Of a stretch of DNA of 45,564 nt, positions 3,901-40,022 are shown piece after piece. Numbering within the stretch: position 1 is the first letter of the stretch; every line of letters begins with the position of its first letter. The notes below the pieces were generated by a model, which did no database searches, was not told the DNA's origin, and worked only from the letters and a program-made list of their open reading frames with translations. The position numbers were made by a program, and so were the translations under genes. The stretch covers positions 1-45,564 of the forward strand of contig JBPGPT010000060.1 in the NCBI GenBank assembly GCA_051047955.1, given 5' to 3'. The stretch comes from Cystobasidiomycetes sp. EMM_F5. Taxonomy: Eukaryota.

Positions 3901-6900
3901 ATGGGCGTGCCAGCGTGAGTCCCGCCGTATCCGAGCATGGCTGCAACTTGGCTGAAGTCGAGCAAACCTGCAGACTCTTCCGATGGCTGTCGAGGAAATA
4001 TGTGAGCAGGCAAACAGCGAGGGCGGCGATGACTTGAGCGATGGCTATGGCTAGCAACGGCATCGCGGCTGTCCTCGCTGACTCATTGAACTGACAATGG
4101 CTGATATTCTGAATTATATTCGATGACTTGGGCAGCCAAAGATTGTGCTGTGAGTGGTAACATCGAGAGAGTAATCAACGTACATGTCCACTGACGGGCT
4201 ACTCGTCCGCAGCCCGGTCGTCGAGGAGCAGCCAGTAGTGTTTCCGGGTCCAGATGGCAGTCCTACAGAGATTCCAGTCGACATTACAAAGCCAAACCCA
4301 AATGGCCAGGAAGTCGACTGCCTGTATCTTGATATGAATGGTATTGTGCACCCGTGTACGCATCCTGAAGGCAAAACTGCGCCGAAAACAGAAGCCGCAA
4401 TGATGGTCGAAGTCTTCAAGTACACTGAGCGAGTCATAAACATGGCTCGACCGCGTAAAGTGATTCACATGGCTATCGATGGTGTCGCCCCCAGAGCAAA
4501 GATGAATCAGCAGCGATCTCGACGTTTCCGCTCGGCTGAAGAAGCAAAGCAGAAGGCCATCGAACGCGAACAGGCTATAAAGGAGTGGGAGGCCCTCGGC
4601 AAGACCATGTCTGACGAGTACAAGAACGAGCAGGCTTGGGATTCGAATGCCATCACTCCAGGAACGCCATTCATGGACCTCCTAGCTTCGTCGTTGAGGT
4701 ACTGGGTGGCTTACAAGCTAAACACTGACGCCGGCTGGGCTGGAGTGCAGGTCATCATTTCCGATGCCTCGGTGCCGGGTGAAGGAGAACACAAAATTAT
4801 GGACTTTGTACGACGACAACGCAGTCAACCAGGCTACGATCCCAACACTACACACGTCTTTTACGGCCTCGATGCCGATCTCATCATGTTGTCGCTGGCG
4901 ACGCATGAGCCCAACTTTAAGATCCTCCGCGAGGATGTATTCGCACAATCGGCCAAGCGTGGATGCCACAAGTGTGGTCTACCTGGTCATCATAGCAGTA
5001 AATGCCTAGGCATCACTCCCGAGCAAAAGATACAGCAGGAGACCGCTGCAAAGTCGGCATTGAAACCATTCATATTCTTGGATGTATCCGTCTTGCGAGA
5101 ATATCTGCAAATTGAGCTCGACATTCCAGGCCTGCCCTTTGCGTTTGACTTAGAACGTGCCATCGACGACTGGGTCTTTATGATTTTCTTTGTCGGAAAC
5201 GACTTTCTACCGCACTTACCGTCACTCGACATTCGAGAGGGGGCTATCGATATGCTGCTTGAGATTTGGCGACGTCAACTGCCACAGATGGGCGGTTATT
5301 TGACTGACAATGGCCGAGTAGATCTCGAAAAGGCTCAATACATTATGGATGGCCTCGCTGCCCGGGAAGACGACATCTTCAAAAAGCGGAGAGCCGAAGA
5401 AGAGCGTCAAAGTGCAATCGATCAGGAAAAGCGGAGGCGTATTGAAGGTACGCGCGAATACGACAGTCCTCGTAACTTCCAAAATGGACACTATCAGCGT
5501 GAAGAAAATCATCAAGCTGCCATTGAGAACACGCCCAACGTGCGCAATGGCGTAGAGTACGTACCTGTCGTGGTAGCCGCAGCTACCGTCCATCCATCAG
5601 CATCCGGTCCTGCGTCCGCTTCAAACCCACCGCAATACGGAGCGGTCGGTGCTCAACCTCCAAAGCCCAAAAATCCCATGTTTATCTCCTCACGACCAGT
5701 CAATGCACCGATTCGTGGCGGCTTCGTTGGCAAAGCTCAAGGGGCCACAGGCGGGACAAACGGAAGTGTCGGTACGGATACTCTGGCCAATAGGGCAGCG
5801 ATCAGAAAGGCAAATATGTCCGCAGCTGATTTGCTCCGAGCGGAGCTAGCCGGCGCTAAGAAGCCAGCTGCAACTGACAATGGAACGAATGGAGGCGCAG
5901 CGACTTCGTTAACGCACACGCCGCAGACACAAGAAGCTGTAGTCAGTTCTTCTGACGCAGTAGCCAATGATATGGCGGGCAATGGGATTATGACAGAACC
6001 AGACGGTGTACAAGATGCCGTGATCACACAACCGCTCGCGGACGAGGAAGATGTCGAAGAAGATGTTCCAGCTTCCGCAGTCGACGGCACCGGCGTAGCC
6101 GCCCAGTCAGTCCTCTTGTTGGAGGACTCTTCAGGAAATTCCGATTCTGCAGCGGGATCTGCCATGCCTCTCGATGACACATCTGACAGTCCCCGGGGCA
6201 AAAAGCGCTCGGCTGACGATGCTGGACTGCCCGCGACCAAAGCGCTAGCTTTGCTGGACGAGGAGAAGGATCAAAATGGGGAGTCGACGCCTGTAGAGGA
6301 TGACGATGATGACGAAGACGACGATAGTAGCGATGATGCCAACATCACTGGTGTGACAGCATCTCCGAGCAAAAGGGCCGCTCCGAAGCCGTTGAAGATG
6401 CTTGGCGGAAACATGGTTGAGCAGGAAGATACCGTAAAGTAAGTCGACCGACTCAGAGTACTTTGGAATTTACTGACACTCGATAACCTTGTAGACTATG
6501 GGAGCCAGGCTACAAAGAACGTTATTACGACCAAAAGTTTGGTGTTCTAATATCCGACGTTGAGTTTCGACGCTCATGCGCCAAATCATACGTTGAAGGT
6601 CTGTGCTGGGTGCTTGCCTACTACTATCAAGGCTGTCCTTCCTGGACATGGTATTACCCGCATCATTTTGCACCGTTCGCTTCAGACTTTACAGATCTTG
6701 CAACAATGGAGATCAAGTTCGATCTCGGCAAGCCCTTCAGGCCTTTCGAGCAATTAATGGGTGTCTTCCCTGCAGCATCGAGGAAGCACATTCCGGAAGC
6801 CTTCCAAGGACTGATGATTGAGGAGGACTCGGAAATCATAGATTTCTACCCAGCAGAGTTCGACGTAGATATGAATGGCAAGAAGGTACGTTTCCAATCG

Positions 6901-8065
6901 CTTTATACGGACCGTGATCGCAATTAACAATGCTACGTAGATGTTATGGCAAGGTGTCGCCTTGCTTCCCTTCATCGATCAACAGCGCCTATTGGAAGCG
7001 CTTGACAAACGCTACGGTCGCTTGACTGATGACGAAAACAAGCGTAACGCGCCGGGAAATGAAGTCGTCTTCGTCGCTGAGGACAACAGGATGTTTGATC
7101 AAATTACGAGCCTCTACATGAAGCGGAAGGTTGCAGACCCCATGCCCATCGATGCTACATTAAGTCGAGGTGTCAGGGGTGCAATCTTGCCTGATGAGTC
7201 ATGCGTTCCTAATTCCACCTTCGTATCGCCTCTCCCTAGCGAGAATTTGTCGGATATCAAGGATGATCGCTCCATTTCGGCGCTGTACTTCGTCTGTTCA
7301 CAAGCAACGGCCCATCGCAGCTTGATACTGCCTGGCTATCGACCAGTGCGGCGCGTCTTGAATCCCGACGATATCAACAAGATACATCGTGGACTAGGTG
7401 GCGGGGATGATCGCGGCTCGCGAGGTGACGGATGTCACGCACAGCGTCGCGACTTGGAAGGCCCGGGACATGTTCGTCGTGACGCTCGTAGCGTCCAAGA
7501 TCCTCGCCGAGAAGGAGGCGCTTACGTACAGCAGAGCCGACCGCAATGGGAGACTCCTGGTTATAATCGAGATACATACTCGCAAGGCCATCAAGCATAC
7601 CCTGCACCTCATCAGTACTCGCAACCACCGTACAATAATGGCGTTCAGCAGGGCTATGGTACATCATCGCAAAGTCCTGCATACGGTGGGTACGGGGGTC
7701 GCGGCAACGCTGGCAACAATCCAGAATACTCCAACTATGGATACGGCGGGCAGTCGTCACATGGAGGATACTCCAGCAGCAACTCCTATCCTGGTGCCAC
7801 TCAATCTCGTCCGCCTTCGTATGGCTCGTACCAACCTTCCCCTCCGACATATGGGGGCTATGGCAATGCAGCGCCTCCCAATCAGCCTCCCCAGCAATAT
7901 CAATACGGCTACGCGCCTCCCACAACCGCAGATTACGGTTCCTACCGGCCTCCGGCCCCACCGCAGCACTCGTATCCGGGTCAGAGTAATCGAGGTGCTC
8001 CCCTCCCCTCGCATTTACAGCAGCCAGGAGGCTTTAATGGTCAAGCACAGCATCGTCGCTGGTAA
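3901..8065 (+). CDS. XRN2: 5'-3' exoribonuclease 2 (Rat1/Xrn2/Dhp1)
   Basis: Small exons 3901-3914, 3974-4001 and 4136-4149 give [18 protein letters not shown]. Further motifs: [54 protein letters not shown] knuckle [45 protein letters not shown]. Confidence 0.97.
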
Positions 8066-8475: not shown

Positions 8476-8799
8476 ATGCGCATATTGCAGCTCTCCACGG
8501 CATCGTTGGTTCTAGCCGCATCGACGGTCAGCAGCATGACCCTGAGAGAACGTCAAGACTCCACTTCAGTCGTTTGCAACGTCTGGGGTTGCGATTCATG
8601 CGGTATCTGGTGAGCCGAACCTTTTGAAGTGTCACGAGTAAGCTGATACGGCATTTCGTATAGCACTGTCAACACAGGGAGCGTCTCTGGCTGTTATAAA
8701 AGTATGATGTGCGCTCACCTTAACAAGTGCACCAATGTCGGAAACGCCAACACCTCAGGCTGTACTGGCGATTACCCTATTCCATGCCTGCGGTGTTGA
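8476..8799 (+). CDS. Small secreted Cys-rich peptide, copy A (89 aa precursor, 10 Cys)
   Basis: Exons 8476-8609 and 8664-8799 (phase-2 GT-AG intron in a Cys codon) give MRILQLSTASLVLAASTVSSMTLRER-QDSTSVVCNVWGCDSCGICTVNTGSVSGCYKSMMCAHLNKCTNVGNANTSGCTGDYPIPCLRC*. Signal-like N-terminus; the intron position is shared with the paralogues. Confidence 0.85.
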
Positions 8800-9149
8800 A
8801 TTTAGATCCAGCCGTTTCTGCACTTACGAGAGTGTCAAGCAGTCGATGGACCCAAACCATCGCGTATTGTTGTGCTCGAGGAGATGTGCGCAGACCCGCA
8901 ACCTTTCCGAAGGAGCTTGCTTGCGCAATGTCAGGACAGGACAAGTTAAACATGACTGACGTTACTTACGCGCTCGTTATGCGAGCCGAGGGAATGCTAA
9001 TACTGACATTCGAGCGGTCACCCACCCCCACATTCTTCAATGCCTTAGCCGCTGTGGGCGAATTTACAAAGTTCTGCAATCAGGAAAGCGCTGCTGAGTC
9101 CTGCTGCTAGCGCCGCTGCGCTACCGGCGGTACGCCAGCGATAGGAGGT

Positions 9150-10760
9150 CGGGCAAAGTCGGAAGGCCTTGTGACCATGGGGAACCGCAACGACTCCGCC
9201 AACGGCATCGTTCCGACCAAGTTTGCTAATCTCACTTCAAAGCGACTTGCTCCTCTTTCTTCAGGTCTTTTCAAGGACGCAACTCTTTTCCATCAGATCA
9301 CACTTGCACTCTTAACACACTCAACGCCGTCATCATGCGTATCGCTGTCGCCTCGCTCGTAACCCTCATCACTGCCGTGGTGATGACTAGCGCAATGACT
9401 CTAGCACCGCGACAAGATGCTGACTCACTCGTCTGCGCCACCCTTGGCTGCGATACTTGCAATACCTGGTCAGTCCGCAGTGGCTAGTTTTTACAATTCT
9501 AAAATTTGACGATTGTACGACTTTTGTGCAGCGTGCTCAATACAGGAGGGTCTGATGGCTGCTACAAGAGCACCAATTGTGGGGCAATGAACGGCTGCAC
9601 CAACTTTGGTACCAGCGGTACGTCTGGCTGCTCAGGAGACTACCCAATTCCGTGCATTCAGTGTCACCACGAGGCTGTTCCCAACACTTCCACCATGGTC
9701 GCTTGAGAATGTCATGCGAGTTTGCATCGTACCTCACATGCCATATCATGCTCGTTTTGCTGTCAACACAGGCGGCATCGCTTGTTGTTGTCAGAAGAAT
9801 GTAATGTGCGCACACCTCGACAGATGTAGCAGAGTTCGGAATGAAACACACCGGTCCGCGATAGCGATCACTTTCGATGCCTACACCGTTGACCGGCTTT
9901 ATGCGGGCGTGATTTAAGGCCGACTCCTCTTCGCATTCTGACGTGACTTTTGAAGATTCGCGCTCGTTCGCTAGCCACACTCAGGGACTCATTATGCAGA
10001 AGAGTCAAATCGCTCGAACGACTTGGTCACCACACGATTTCTTCGATTTCTTCTGTAGATACAGCGCATGAGACTGCCTCTTGTACATTTCCCTTTCCGA
10101 GTACCCAGCTCCACTTAAACACTAATGACCAATGAGTCCGCGTTGACCAGCTCACAAGCTGATACTCCGTACCGATGTGAATGCATCTGGCTTGCGGAAG
10201 CTACAGTGCACCAGCCGACGGCACGCTTGCGGCGGCAAGTTGATGGAGTCGGGAGGCCTCGTGACCTTCCAAGAACCGCACCGACTCCGCCGACGGTATT
10301 GTTCCGCACACCTTTGCTAACGTCAGTTGAAAGCGATTTGCGCCTCTTTTCTCAGGTCTTTCCACCATCACAATCCACTACGTTAGTTCACACTTGCACC
10401 ACTACTCCAATTGACACTCTCCGTCATGCGCATTATACTGGCCTTACTCCATTCTCTCGCGACTGCTATTGCCATGACTAGCGCAATGACATTGGCACCG
10501 CGACAAGATGATGGTACCCTCGCCTGCGCTACCCTTGGCTGCGATACTTGCAATACCTGGTATGTGCTGAGCACCTTGTTCTCGATGTCAGGATCTTAAC
10601 GATTGTACAACCTTGTCAGCGTGCTCAATATGGGAGGCCCAGATGGCTGCTACAAGAGCACCAGTTGCGGGGCCATGAACGGCTGCACCAACTTTGGTAC
10701 CAGCGGTACGTCTGGCTGCTCAGGAGACTACCCAATTCCGTGCATTCAGTGTCACCATGA
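9150..10760 (+). repeat. Tandem duplication (about 1.09 kb offset) covering the upstream region and CDS of copies B and C
   Basis: Alignable upstream blocks (e.g. cgactccgccaacggcatcgttccg vs cgactccgccgacggtattgttccg; tttgctaa...aaagcga.ttgc...tcaggtcttt) and an identical 83-nt tract, 9587-9669 = 10675-10757. Confidence 0.85.
9335..9706 (+). CDS. Small secreted Cys-rich peptide, copy B (102 aa precursor, 10 Cys)
   Basis: Exons 9335-9468 and 9532-9706 give MRIAVASLVTLITAVVMTSAMTLAPR-QDADSLVCATLGCDTCNTCVLNTGGSDGCYKSTNCGAMNGCTNFGTSGTSGCSGDYPIPCIQCHHEAVPNTSTMVA*. Confidence 0.87.
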
Positions 10761-10788
10761 GCTTCCCCCTGCCACCACCGATGTGTGA
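10426..10788 (+). CDS. Small secreted Cys-rich peptide, copy C (100 aa precursor, 10 Cys)
   Basis: Exons 10426-10559 and 10620-10788 give MRIILALLHSLATAIAMTSAMTLAPR-QDDGTLACATLGCDTCNTCVLNMGGPDGCYKSTSCGAMNGCTNFGTSGTSGCSGDYPIPCIQCHHELPPATTDV*. Confidence 0.87.
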
Positions 10789-11032: not shown

Positions 11033-12979
<1,947 letters not shown>

Positions 12980-18801: not shown

Positions 18802-18860
18802 GAAAGACGAATGATGCTGAACACTTCCGTCACACCCAGAAAGCAAAAGAAGAGGCGCAG

Positions 18861-18953
18861 TGCCTGCTAGAGGGGTTGAACCTCTGACCTCCACGTCGCG
18901 ACCGACAAAACCGGCGTACGAGCGCGGCGCTTCTACCACTGAGCCAAGCAGGC
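18861..18953 (-). tRNA. tRNA-Thr(CGT) with a 20-nt intron
   Basis: Minus strand GCCTGCT TG GCTCAGTGGTAGAAGC G CCGCG CT-CGT-A [cgccggttttgtcggtcgcg] A CGTGG AGGTC AGAGG TTCAACC CCTCT AGCAGGC A. It has a 7-bp acceptor stem, A and B boxes, a 5-bp T stem, an intron one base 3' of the anticodon and a 73-nt mature length. Confidence 0.92.
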
Positions 18954-19438: not shown

Positions 19439-19808
19439 CTAACTCCGGGAATTTGGCTCAGTATAGCACGCTATGCAAGCCATTGGATACGTCGTCGAAC
19501 AGCCGTGTGACGCATCCCCTGCCATAAGGCCAAAATTGCAGCCGTTCGCAGCTGCACAGTCCATTGATCGGTAACACCCTTGGCCGGTACCATCTGCGAC
19601 TCTGCTAAATGCCTCACGCCAGTATCAGCTTCGGAACACAATTCTGACGACCTCTTATTGCGGGTCCGTACAAGTTGAATTCACCGCAGCTGTCGCAGCC
19701 CGCTACAGGGCAATTAGCCCACGGCACAGCATCTCTGGGTACTATAGCAGCAAGTGCTGTACTGGTGATGCAGAATGCGATTGCGAGATGGTGAAAGATT
19801 TTGTACAT
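19439..19808 (-). CDS. Small secreted Cys-rich peptide, divergent copy D
   Basis: MYKIFHHLAIAFCITSTALAAIVPR-DAVPWANCPVAGCDSCGEFN, an intron (exact donor/acceptor uncertain), then RVADGTGQGCYRSMDCAAANGCNFGLMAGDASHGCSTTYPMACIACYTEPNSRS*. Shares GCDSC, GCY+S..C...N.C and GC...YP..C..C with copies A-C. Confidence 0.78.
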
Positions 19809-35497: not shown

Positions 35498-37428
35498 ATG
35501 GGCGAGGCGAGTACCTCTGCAGTGACTGGACGGCGTAGCAGTAAATTCAAGAGTCTCCTGGCGAGGCTGGGCGGGAGCAACAGTGCGAGTGCGACATCGT
35601 CAAAGGCAGGAGCAGGAGGAGCTACAGCAATATCGACGTCGAAAGTGAGCTTTAAAGAGAATAATATGTTTAGGATGAACACGCTGACTGGAGAACGAGC
35701 TAGGGCACCATAATAACCTCCAATGCGACTCCCAAAGCTCATCGCAAGGCAGCGACGAGCAATACAACCCCAGCTCAAGCAGTCAAAGCCCAGGCCAGAG
35801 CTCGTGGCAGCAGAGCCAACGGCAGCAGTGAAGGTTACTCTGATATCGCAGGACAGACTGAAGCTGGACCGTCATCTGCGAGTGCTGCAGCTGAAATGCA
35901 AGCCAAAGCAGCTGCCTTGTCGTCGAATGATGCGCAAAGACGACAGCCAGACGGCAGTGATGCCAACGACGACGACGACGACGACGACGAAGAGCTAGAT
36001 GGAGCTGATGCAGACGCGTCTATACGTCCGCTCACTCCGTCTTCGTTGGTCGCGTCATCGTCGTTTACAGGCAGTACATCCTTGGACTCTCGTGCCCCGA
36101 CGAGCAGGACATTCAAGAGCTTTGTGACGGGGCATAGCAAGACTTCGGGATCCACTAAACCGAAAACACTGGCTTCGGCTTCTGGAGGAGCAGGCGTATC
36201 GACGCATGCAAGAAACACGCCAAACAGTCCACCCCGTCCTGCTCGACTGCTTGCAAACTCTACTGAGCAGCCGGAACCGCATACAAGGAATGGCGCTGCA
36301 ATTCCACTCTCGTCTAATTCTATCCCGTCAGTCGAGATGCACAACAGCAGTTCCAATCGCATCGCTACCAGCATCCACGAATCGCGTGATAATGAGACTG
36401 CGACTGGCCTGCAGACGACAGCGCTGCAGTCCGACCCAACATCCCAACTCCCTACCAGCACAAGCGCACTCAATGAGAGTCCTGCATTACCAAAGTTGGT
36501 CAAGACGTCGAGCCCACTACGCAACAGCTTTACAGGAGATCAAGCGCCTTCTTTGAGCGAAGTTGTGATTGCTGCCGAAGACGTAACTCCACCTCACTTC
36601 AGGCCGAAACGGAGTATGAGCGTGGAGGAGCGATGGGACGAGGAAGGAGAAGGAGAACGTCGGGATAGCGATTCTGTCGTTTTGCCTTCGTCTAGGTCAA
36701 TTACCTTTTCGCATTTACCGCCCCTCACGAATCGACCTGCGTCAGCGAATGGTACTGTAAATACGGCTACATCCGCCGACATGGTTGCGGGTGATACAGA
36801 AGTACCTTCGCACTACCCTCGACATTTTCACCCCGATCCCCGCAACAATCCCCGAGCATCGTCTCCACCTCCAGACAATGCATCTACGCTGACGCTGGCT
36901 AGTTCGACTGGCGGACACGCACAGAGCATCTACCGCGACGCTATGCATGGGGATGAAGGGACATCCACGCCTGTTGTCGGAACACCGGGCATCTATCAGC
37001 ACAGCACATCCTCCCCTGCACCACTCTCTGCCGCCCGGTATCCGAGCTACATGGACGGGCTAAAGTATGCGCACAGCTTCAGGACGGATCGTACCGGAGC
37101 GGCCGAGGACGCGAGCATCCGAGCTCTTGCCCCCTCTCGGAGGGAGAGCATGGACTCGCTCGGCTCAAAGTGGTCGGCGGCTGTACTGAGTGCCAAACCG
37201 CCGTCTGCGAGTGTGGGCGGTGGAGCGGCGAGTACGAGCGCGGGAGAGTATGCTGGGACGTGGGCGTCGACGTCGGGAGATGCGAGTGGAGCGGGAGTGC
37301 CCGAGCACCACAGCTACTCGTCGTCGGAGCGGGGCAAACGGAGAACGCCGAGCACGAAGACGAACGCTACGGCTAGCTCGTCGTACTATGCGAGTGCGAG
37401 TGTGCAGCCGACGGCGGTGGTGGTGTAG
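35498..37428 (+). CDS. Hypothetical Ser/Thr-rich disordered protein
   Basis: ATG at 35498, an intron at about 35645-35703, then a long open frame containing DADASIRPL, PRNNPRASSPPPDNASTLTLASS and EDASIRALAPSRR. Confidence 0.7.
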
Positions 37429-37660: not shown

Positions 37661-40022
37661 ATGGCAGACACGACGACGACGACCAAGACTGGCAGTGAAG
37701 CAGCAAATAATGCAAATAATCAAACTGCCCCCAAACCAAAGGCTGGCACAAAAGACGCTGGCATCGTCGAGAGCGTGGTAGCGACAGCGAAGCGGTACAT
37801 TCCAGGACTCGGCGAGGACAAGGGCAGTGCTGCAGCTGGTAAAAGTCGAGCTCGCAGCGGGAAAAAGAAGCAGTCCAATACTCAAAGTGCCGATATTGCC
37901 AACGCTGAGGACCCAGCACTCGCTACGGCACTCGTAGACCACGCCCCGTCCTCTGCAGAGCTCCCAGACAGTCTCCTAGATCATGGTAATACTGCCCCGT
38001 CCAAGCGGCCAGCTCCTCTGACGACTGGAAACGGTAATGGAGCTGGAAACGAGCTCACAAACGAAGAGCTCGCTGCCTTGGAGCAAAAGAGGTTCTCGCC
38101 CACAGCCATCCTCCAGAAGAGACTAAAGGCCAACAGCAAGAAACTGGTGCGCTTGGTTTGCTCCTGATGAACGGGATTTGCGCGAGCTGAGATGGGATAC
38201 GTCGACAGCAACGGATTGCAACCTACGAGGAGCAATCCGCAGCCCTCAACGAAGACCAGAAGAAGGCACTCGCTACGAAACCAGCTCTGGAAGCACTCAC
38301 GAAGGAGCACAAGGAGCTCATAAAGCTGTTTGAGGTGTGTAGCACGAACGCTCAGACCTTCCGTGTGGAGCAGGTCTGCACCACACGCTACGGCAGGCTC
38401 ATGCATGCTACATTGTACTGATCATGTCGCACTGCTACGCTCGCAGGACGAAGAAGCCGAGGACGACAAGCTGACCGCCAAAAAGAACAAGTATCAAGAA
38501 AAGCAGGTTCAATTGCGCATCCAACAAGCGCTGTCAGCAAACGAGGTGAGCAAGCCTCTCCAAAACGGTCCATCATACGCAGTGTATTCACGCATCACCT
38601 TCTGTTCAGGCCCACGTCCAAAACGACCTCACCTTCTTGCTCCAGTTCCTGCACCTGTACTCCCTCTTCAACACCTCGCAGTCTGGCTTTGCCCCACCAA
38701 CACTTCCTCCCGTCGTCGCAAACGCTACCGGGCAACAACATGCAGCCGTCCAGACTCTCTTCCACTCTCTTGCCGATGGTCCGCTGTTTGGCGGTGTGAG
38801 CGCAGCCAGTGCAGGCAGCCACGATAATGGAGATGCCGTCAGTCAGATCAAGGCACTCAATTCTGGCTCGAGCAACAGCATCATCGAAGGCGTCTCGTTT
38901 GCCGACATCAAGCAGATGATTCTCGACCTGACTGCTCCTCCAAGCGAAGTTCCAGGAGGTCACGAGCTGCCAGAGTCTGATGTTCCGTCCGCTTCGCACG
39001 TAGATTCGACATCTCAGCCGCCTCTCGCGGCCGCAGATGCTCCGGCACTTAACTTTATGCAAGCTTCAGAGATTGAGCCAGATCGATCTGCCAATAACGA
39101 AGATGCGATGGCTGCTGCAGCTGCAGCAAAAGACAAACCAGAACATCAGGCTGCTATCGAGACTGTGTCACGAGCTGCTACACCAGGCTTTGGCAGCCAG
39201 ACACCCATTCTGGAGAAATCGGTCGCTCAAGCTGAACATCCGTCGGTCAATCACGCTCCCCAAAAAACGCAAGGCTGGGAAGAACCGGCCGGCCTGACCC
39301 AGGATAAGCTTCCGGCCAAAGATGGATGGGAATCAGTAGGGCGATATTGACGTCTATTCGTGTATTGCCTGACTGCTGACTACTACTTTTGTAATGACCA
39401 GATGACCTCAACCGAACCTATCAAGAGCTGGGCAGACGAGGTCGAAGAAGCCACACCCAGCAATCCGTACACTGCCACGGCTGAAGTTCCGACAGAAGTT
39501 CAGTCTGGCGAGACTGGAAATGCTTTGGCGGGTGCACTGCCCAACGGCGGCCGAAGAGGTGATGGACGTGGTCGTGGCAGAGGTGGCCGTGGCCGTGGAG
39601 GCGAGTTCCGAGGACATTCTGATGGACAAAACTTCCGTGGACGCGGTGGACCTCATCGTGGTGGAGGTGGACGAGATATGGAGAATGGCGGAACTTGGCG
39701 CCGCGGAGGTGCAAGCGAGCACCATGATGGCAGTCGTGAAGCTATCGGAGCGGCAGTAGCAAGGGTAGCGGAAGCCAACGGCCCAGCTGCTGGTACTACT
39801 GTGGCCGATGACGGCTTTACTCAAGTTGCTGGCCGACATAGCGGAGGACATAGCCGTGGCAGAGGTGATCATCACCATCATCGGGGAGGAAGAGGACAAT
39901 TCAGAGGTGACTTCAGAGGAGGAGAGCGTAGAGGAGGCGAGCAGCACCCTGGCGGGAGTCGAGGTTCCGCAAGACCTCCCCGAAATCCTGAAGCTCAGGC
40001 TGCAGCCAGTCCGTCAGCTTGA
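37661..40022 (+). CDS. Caprin-like RNA-binding protein (coiled coil plus C-terminal RGG boxes)
   Basis: Spliced LQKRLKANSKKL-QRIATYE...LNEDQKKALATKPALE (like Caprin HR1), LLQFLHLY, LNFMQASEIE, SWADE, DDGFTQV and multiple RGG/GRG repeats. The CDS is secure; the family call is inferred. Confidence 0.65.

Follow-up and report, generated by a model that had tools for sequence, protein, structure and literature searches.

Organisation of the locus

Three genes for small cysteine-rich preproproteins, here called g1, g2 and g3, follow one another on the plus strand of the window (the whole stretch of DNA analysed, 45,564 nt), and they match exactly the three same-strand, two-exon genes proposed in the initial annotation of this DNA (Table 1). 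As that annotation had described, all three have a first coding exon of 134 nt, after which a short intron interrupts a cysteine codon between TG and C; the introns (54, 63 and 60 nt in g1, g2 and g3 respectively) run from GT to AG, carry a branch-like site in each case, and are followed by a second exon that restores the reading frame. The predicted splice models rest on the sequence and on the agreement between paralogues, and the in-frame stop within each intron (8610-8663, 9469-9531 and 10560-10619) rules out an unspliced reading of these genes. The lengths of these three introns are all divisible by three, but this is probably chance since those of the further paralogues described below (67, 58, 71, 71 and 60 nt) mostly are not. 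The three genes illustrate how an intron within a Cys codon conceals such genes from gene callers.

The spacing between the ten cysteines (4, 2, 2, 9, 5, 5, 10, 7 and 2 residues) is identical in g1-g3, the motifs GCYKS and GDYPIPC occur in all three, and the sequence LRER or LAPR, claimed as the end of a pro-piece, finishes at residue 26 with QD coming next. The skeleton of six cysteines encoded by exon 2 occurs three times in the real window, compared to no occurrence in 100 base-shuffled windows. The array does lie between housekeeping genes as proposed, with the exoribonuclease XRN2, recognised by Pfam, to the left and a class III alcohol dehydrogenase to the right. Elsewhere on the plus strand of the window, at 35704-37428 and 38550-40022, there are long open frames (574, 266 and 223 residues) with no Pfam match.

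Table 1. Predicted genes and related features, with positions in the window unless another contig is named
Feature	Position	Strand	Description
XRN2/Rat1 exoribonuclease gene	4175..8065	+	Left flank; Pfam XRN_N/XRN_M; gene start further upstream
g1	8476..8799	+	Predicted exons 8476-8609 and 8664-8799; 89-aa preproprotein, 10 Cys, last Cys is the C-terminus
g1 intron	8610..8663	+	Predicted; 54 nt, GTGAGC..TAG; interrupts Cys4 codon; in-frame stops inside
g2 upstream region	9157..9334	+	72% identity to 10247-10425 upstream of g3; z 16 against shuffles; duplicated putative promoter/5' UTR
g2	9335..9706	+	Predicted exons 9335-9468 and 9532-9706; 102 aa, 10 Cys, mature pI 4.2
Relic of g1 exon 2	9758..9892	+	Decayed, frameshifted, without first exon; 67% identity, z 12.4; marks start of putative ~1.09-kb tandem duplication
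g3	10426..10788	+	Predicted exons 10426-10559 and 10620-10788; 100 aa, 10 Cys, mature pI 4.1
Class III alcohol dehydrogenase (SFA1-like) exon	11344..11427	+	Right flank; E 2.5e-8
g4	19439..19808	-	Predicted exons 19808-19672 and 19604-19439; 100 aa; paralogue, shared intron position
g5 and g6	C135 (L006) 6339-6767 and 7269-7699		Three predicted exons each; both introns interrupt Cys codons

The best named relatives of the XRN2 protein come from Microbotryomycetes and Mixia (best local alignments at about 50-66% identity), and in a FastTree phylogeny built from 32 of the 120 matches listed the window protein groups with an 86% identical relative beside Mixia osmundae (support 0.80), among Pucciniomycotina. 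The host thus looks like a Pucciniomycotina fungus, and we place it to subphylum only as the tree is thinly sampled and its plant outgroup sits on a long branch. XRN2 relatives with 86-88% identity are found in two unannotated public assemblies (L021 and P0002), so public data do include close kin of this little-sampled fungus. Synteny of XRN2 and SFA1 in relatives had been suggested as a check, and the XRN2 side could be compared at nine XRN2 loci; neither a second window gene nor the family motif was found at any of them (0/9), and the contig carrying the closest locus (88%, L021) stops ~65 nt past the XRN2 stop codon.

A family of six paralogues

Searches of the genome (18.3 Mb, 253 contigs) with single exons found three further paralogues, g4 in the window and g5 and g6 adjacent to one another on a second contig. 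Two independent DNA patterns, one for each end of the peptide, gave 11 and 9 genome matches, with the same six genes in each set, and the remaining 8 matches showed no family features on inspection. The first intron interrupts the identical codon in all six paralogues. In g4 this split codon encodes Phe, so that Cys4 is absent and the mature part has 9 Cys, while a second intron, present in g5 and g6, interrupts the codon for Cys6 and in g6 starts with a weak donor (GTTTGT); the predicted models of these two genes were picked by their Cys spacing among enumerated alternatives. The Cys skeleton described as invariant in the initial annotation is so within g1-g3, but across the family the gap between Cys3 and Cys4 is 2, 4 or 5 residues, in addition to the missing Cys4 of g4, and the wider pattern is C-x4-C-x2-C-x(2-5)-C-x(9-10)-C-x5-C-x5-C-x(10-12)-C-x7-C-x2-C.

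With Cys4 and Cys6 masked at the intron junctions, 17 columns of the six-gene alignment are invariant, including the Arg of the putative pro-site, 8 Cys, 4 Gly, an Asp, a Tyr and a Pro. The proteins of g2 and g3 are identical at 79 of 100 positions and g1 matches either of them at 44-47 of 89, with the other pairs at 27-39% identity; support within the paralogue tree is poor (30-71). A codon-usage test gave a pooled z of 3.05, yet the non-coding control reached 2.2 and the coding control -0.5. These six genes are best read as one lineage-restricted family of small, presumably secreted preproproteins.

The g4 gene lies 10 kb from the array, near the gene for the largest subunit of RNA polymerase and about 490 nt upstream of a tRNA-like gene, which ARAGORN called at 18860-18953 on the minus strand as probably intron-containing, with the anticodon not resolved. 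On the contig of g5 and g6, an open frame of 439 residues with no Pfam match (L006 7991-9310, plus strand) begins right after g6.

Duplication, selection and gene conversion

The array seems to have originated by local duplication, with an old split between g1 and g2 and a tandem duplication of ~1.09 kb from which g2 and g3 would derive. The offset between g1 and the relic of its exon 2 is 1094 nt, and that between the g2 and g3 blocks is 1090 nt; these near-equal offsets are most simply read as one tandem duplication that started within g1 and included g2. Alignment is lost in the spacer that separates the duplicated blocks (z 1.9), and for this reason we infer the single duplication step rather than observe it.

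Purifying selection acts on the mature core: over 55 codons, pN was 0.31 and pS 0.75 between g1 and g2 (p 5e-6), and 0.027 and 0.149 between g2 and g3 (p 0.009), from simple Nei-Gojobori counts that were rounded before testing. The cores of g2 and g3 share 53 of 56 residues, and dS between these genes is 0.17 in the core compared to 1.2 in the signal peptide. Their introns are 63% identical, and identity is complete across 9594-9653 (p 0.0013). A core dS so far below the divergence of signal peptide and intron points to gene conversion of the g2/g3 core as likely, which would keep the two cores alike and might thereby provide a higher dose of one product.

Predicted processing of the precursors

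A hydrophobic N-terminus in all six paralogues (best 11-residue Kyte-Doolittle mean 1.8-2.45), in keeping with the signal-like N-terminus proposed for g1-g3, suggests a signal peptide of ~20 residues that would send the precursor into the ER. Aliphatic-x-x-Arg ends at residue 25-27 in every paralogue (L-x-x-R in four, I-x-x-R in two) and, its Arg being invariant in the six-gene alignment, this matches the K2PP motif of Arg at P1 and an aliphatic residue at P4 in the N-terminal half. According to PMC8528282, Kex2 requires Arg at P1, prefers Leu or another aliphatic residue at P4 and tolerates Pro or Glu at P2, and P2 is Pro or Glu in four of our paralogues (g1-g4). From this motif, a Kex2-type protease would be expected to cut after the invariant Arg, removing a pro-piece of 5-6 residues. 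K2PP denotes a mode of processing and does not define a sequence family; the six precursors resemble the K2PP effectors of PMC8528282 in carrying aliphatic-x-x-Arg after the signal peptide, with P2 of g1-g4 inside the tolerated set, but their pro-piece is only about 5-6 residues long, and both cleavage and an effector role are putative here. The resulting mature peptide of 63-76 residues may fold through five disulfides, although the missing Cys4 and odd Cys count of g4 are not what a strict five-disulfide fold would predict. Gln is the predicted first mature residue in four of the six, where it would probably cyclise.

Comparison with known families

The initial annotation held that the spacing fits neither hydrophobins, CSab defensins nor CFEM proteins, and these misfits were borne out. 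Two adjacent Cys pairs are part of the hydrophobin pattern, and the CSab fold joins a CxxxC helix with a CxC strand. CC, CxC and CxxxC are each absent from all six mature peptides, which have 10 Cys (9 in g4), and there was no Pfam match to hydrophobins. The published patterns have eight Cys in a fixed arrangement in hydrophobins (spacing table in PMC3879219) and twelve in copsin (PMC6461984). Copsin and its paralogues, CSab defensins of the basidiomycete Coprinopsis cinerea, are described in PMC6461984 with a signal, pro and mature layout that all six of our genes share, with an N-terminal Gln (predicted in four of ours) and with adjacent paralogues; unlike them, g1-g6 have 10 rather than 12 Cys, lack CxxxC and CxC, and are acidic in five cases of the six.

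The mature pI is 4.1-4.3 in five of the six peptides, and 6.7, near neutral, in g1. AFP, bubble protein (BP), NFAP2 (PMC13525654) and cylindracin/PRI3 (PMC11532979) are alike in their pre-pro-mature, Cys-stabilised organisation and in precursors of about 86-95 residues, but those accounts give them 6-8 Cys (eight in cylindracin) and a basic character, and AFP, BP and NFAP2 a conserved gamma-core (G-x-C-x3-9-C, or two C-x3-9-C-x-G). The dextromeric gamma-core pattern was found in two of our six peptides and the BP-type pattern in none, so that with their acidic charge they were rejected as members of this group. No match to the Pfam CFEM model was obtained with exons or with unspliced read-throughs, split queries of this kind being less sensitive.

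The Kazal signature is C-x7-C-x6-Y-x3-C-x2,3-C plus a final Cys, and it occurs in none of the six. A weak local match to the Kazal inhibitor SPINK1 (E 0.29) shares Y-P-x-x-C-x-x-C and an equal 18-residue Cys-Cys distance; however, the middle Cys is displaced, the final Cys is missing, g1 ends at CxxC, and Pfam gives no match. The C-x5-C-x5-C stretch, which we take to resemble beetle antifreeze repeats, was dropped as a lead since it had no Pfam or PDB support.

A close parallel in kind is the group of tandem, species-specific, Cys-rich secreted proteins described in Pucciniomycotina (PMC4469406, PMC4759460), such as the MVLG_04105 family of Microbotryum: those accounts present them as small, secreted, Cys-rich, tandem, without a Pfam domain and without database relatives, but no sequence relationship to them was found and g1-g6 have a Cys skeleton of their own. 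In PMC4759460 the mean for basidiomycetes is 100 species-specific small secreted proteins, with Pucciniomycotina having the most. Private Cys-rich secreted proteins are so numerous in fungi that one more family will not surprise specialists, and g1-g6 are apparently an undescribed family, but of a common fungal kind.

Searches for relatives and folds

The claim that the peptides match no described family held in Pfam, NCBIfam, PDB sequences and collections of proteins and metagenomes. In a collection of 5.8 billion proteins, a word search with the exon-2 open frame of g2 gave no homologue, and an 11-row alignment gave 529 candidates, none at E<=10; a profile of exon 2 only (52 positions) had no match at E<=0.001 among 1.84 billion representatives, and 368 seeds in metagenome contigs yielded no confirmed relative. 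Four loci of 8-14 residues in viral contigs were rejected as seed-only chance matches. Pfam, searched with exons and unspliced read-throughs (the less sensitive split queries noted above), and NCBIfam returned nothing for the peptides. Sequence searches of the PDB gave only weak rows, namely SPINK1 (E 0.29), the zinc-ribbon ribosomal protein eS27 (E 0.3-0.5) and a Pin-II-type inhibitor (E 5.9), along with a designed protein of three repeats (E 0.007), of which single repeats score 5-6 bits. The 5.8-billion collection contains the XRN2 frame of this very window but did not return the window's own peptide genes, which indicates that short split genes of this type escape gene callers; as the profile covered exon 2 only and there is no close annotated relative, this blank carries little weight.

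AlphaFold2 models, a check that had been proposed, were made of exon 2 and of the unspliced read-through, but with pLDDT of 52 and 45 respectively the empty fold searches that followed have no bearing on fold novelty. In the literature searched, no description of the skeleton was found and the exact motifs appeared only in unrelated papers, though subscription journals and other supplements could hold a description. Six motifs had no occurrence in 12 supplementary files of PMC4759460, including its FASTA set of species-specific proteins, in a search run without a positive control.

Proposed function

Beyond Cys and Gly, the conserved residues are the Asp of G-C-D-x-C, the Tyr and Lys/Arg of G-C-Y-[KR], and [YF]-P, and these could form a binding patch. 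Our preferred reading, which we hold tentatively and at somewhat less than even confidence, is that Kex2 maturation yields miniproteins with five disulfides, which bind to and block an extracellular protein of foreign origin. This target would be a specific protein belonging to a host, a competitor or a grazer, and the action would not be membrane lysis, the acidic charge and the failed motif tests making a charge-driven attack on membranes unlikely.

Canonical protease inhibitors present their P1 residue with a Cys at P3 and a small residue at P1', on an exposed loop braced by disulfides; the AlphaFold2 models were too poor to show such a loop here. Lys or Arg stands two residues after Cys5 in all six peptides, in four of them as the sole basic residue, which is what led us to an inhibitor reading. 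Lys or Arg at P1 is given in PMC5309989 as the mark of inhibitors of trypsin-like enzymes, and substrate-like, canonical inhibition of trypsin-like serine proteases with this residue as P1 is our lead specific mechanism, though one that we hold with low confidence. The best matches to inhibitor families, SPINK1 and the Pin-II type among the PDB rows, are not significant, and in neither does the conserved Lys fall at a reactive site. Paralogues of canonical inhibitors tend to differ at their reactive sites, and the fixed position of the Lys/Arg in this family was counted against the inhibitor reading; the residue could instead be structural, forming a salt bridge with the invariant Asp. More speculative still is the full form of this idea, in which an undescribed five-disulfide fold serves a deep-branching Pucciniomycotina fungus as a set of canonical trypsin-type inhibitors against host or competitor proteases, an acidic scaffold with one basic P1 being amplified and homogenised by conversion. 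The family offers a clean case for such questions, as its six paralogues define the conserved residues and its peptides are short enough to be produced; should the fold prove new, or the basic residue be a protease-reactive site, it would add a scaffold and a mechanism for a poorly sampled fungal lineage.

Two other roles appear unlikely, to a similar degree. In the first, the peptides would be secreted Zn- or Cu-binding proteins, with CxxC knuckles and other Cys holding the metal, or would act at the cell surface to scavenge metal or render it harmless. A precedent of Cys-based metal coordination is the flax rust effector AvrP, and AvrP and AvrP123 have 10 Cys and bind zinc via Cys and His. 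These Melampsora lini proteins are also described as secreted, Cys-rich Pucciniomycotina proteins of about 100 residues (PMC4846801), but no PDB sequence match to them was seen at E up to 10 and metal binding by g1-g6 is putative. Both CxxC pairs are exactly spaced in all six peptides, which also have acidic character and one or two His each, and loss of a single Cys, as in g4, would be more easily tolerated if strict pairing were not needed; the only PDB profile match, to the zinc-ribbon ribosomal protein, is not significant. A signal peptide and Kex2 site, however, imply a route through the oxidising ER, the Cys count is even in five of the six, the His positions are not conserved, and the PDB sequence searches found no significant match to solved metal-binding proteins.

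The second is a glycan- or surface-binding role, in which the wall would be shielded by attachment of the conserved Tyr/Phe and Asp to chitin or glucan, or surfaces would be coated with the peptide. Pfam gave no carbohydrate-binding or hydrophobin match and none of the six has the adjacent Cys pair of hydrophobins, and g1-g3 lack overall hydrophobicity (GRAVY -0.14 to 0.07), with no Trp in mature g2 and g3; this has to be set against the invariant Tyr, the [YF]-P, the invariant Asp, the Ser/Thr/Pro-rich tails and, for surface coating, a report that hydrophobins are missing in Puccinia and Rhodotorula (PMC3879219).

An antimicrobial role, which the initial annotation had entertained, is slightly less probable again. 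The precursor layout, N-terminal Gln, adjacent paralogues and a mature length near 57-65 residues recall the copsin family as described in PMC6461984, and g1 is near neutral and has a gamma-core pattern, but the role is disfavoured by the acidity of the other five, by a gamma-core in only two of six, by 10 rather than 12 Cys and no CxxxC or CxC, and by the basic character reported for AFP, BP and NFAP2 (PMC13525654).

It is improbable that the peptides are signalling or developmental ligands acting on a receptor of the fungus itself, in mating, fruiting or cell-cell recognition; strong conservation of the core and the apparent homogenisation of g2 and g3 would suit a fixed target of its own better than an arms race, but no receptor gene was recognised among the 35 window open reading frames scanned and the other paralogues are just 27-39% identical. 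Very improbable, despite one relic and one 9-Cys copy, is that the genes are unexpressed, decaying or wrongly spliced in our models, given their intact frames, the intron position kept in all six and purifying selection.
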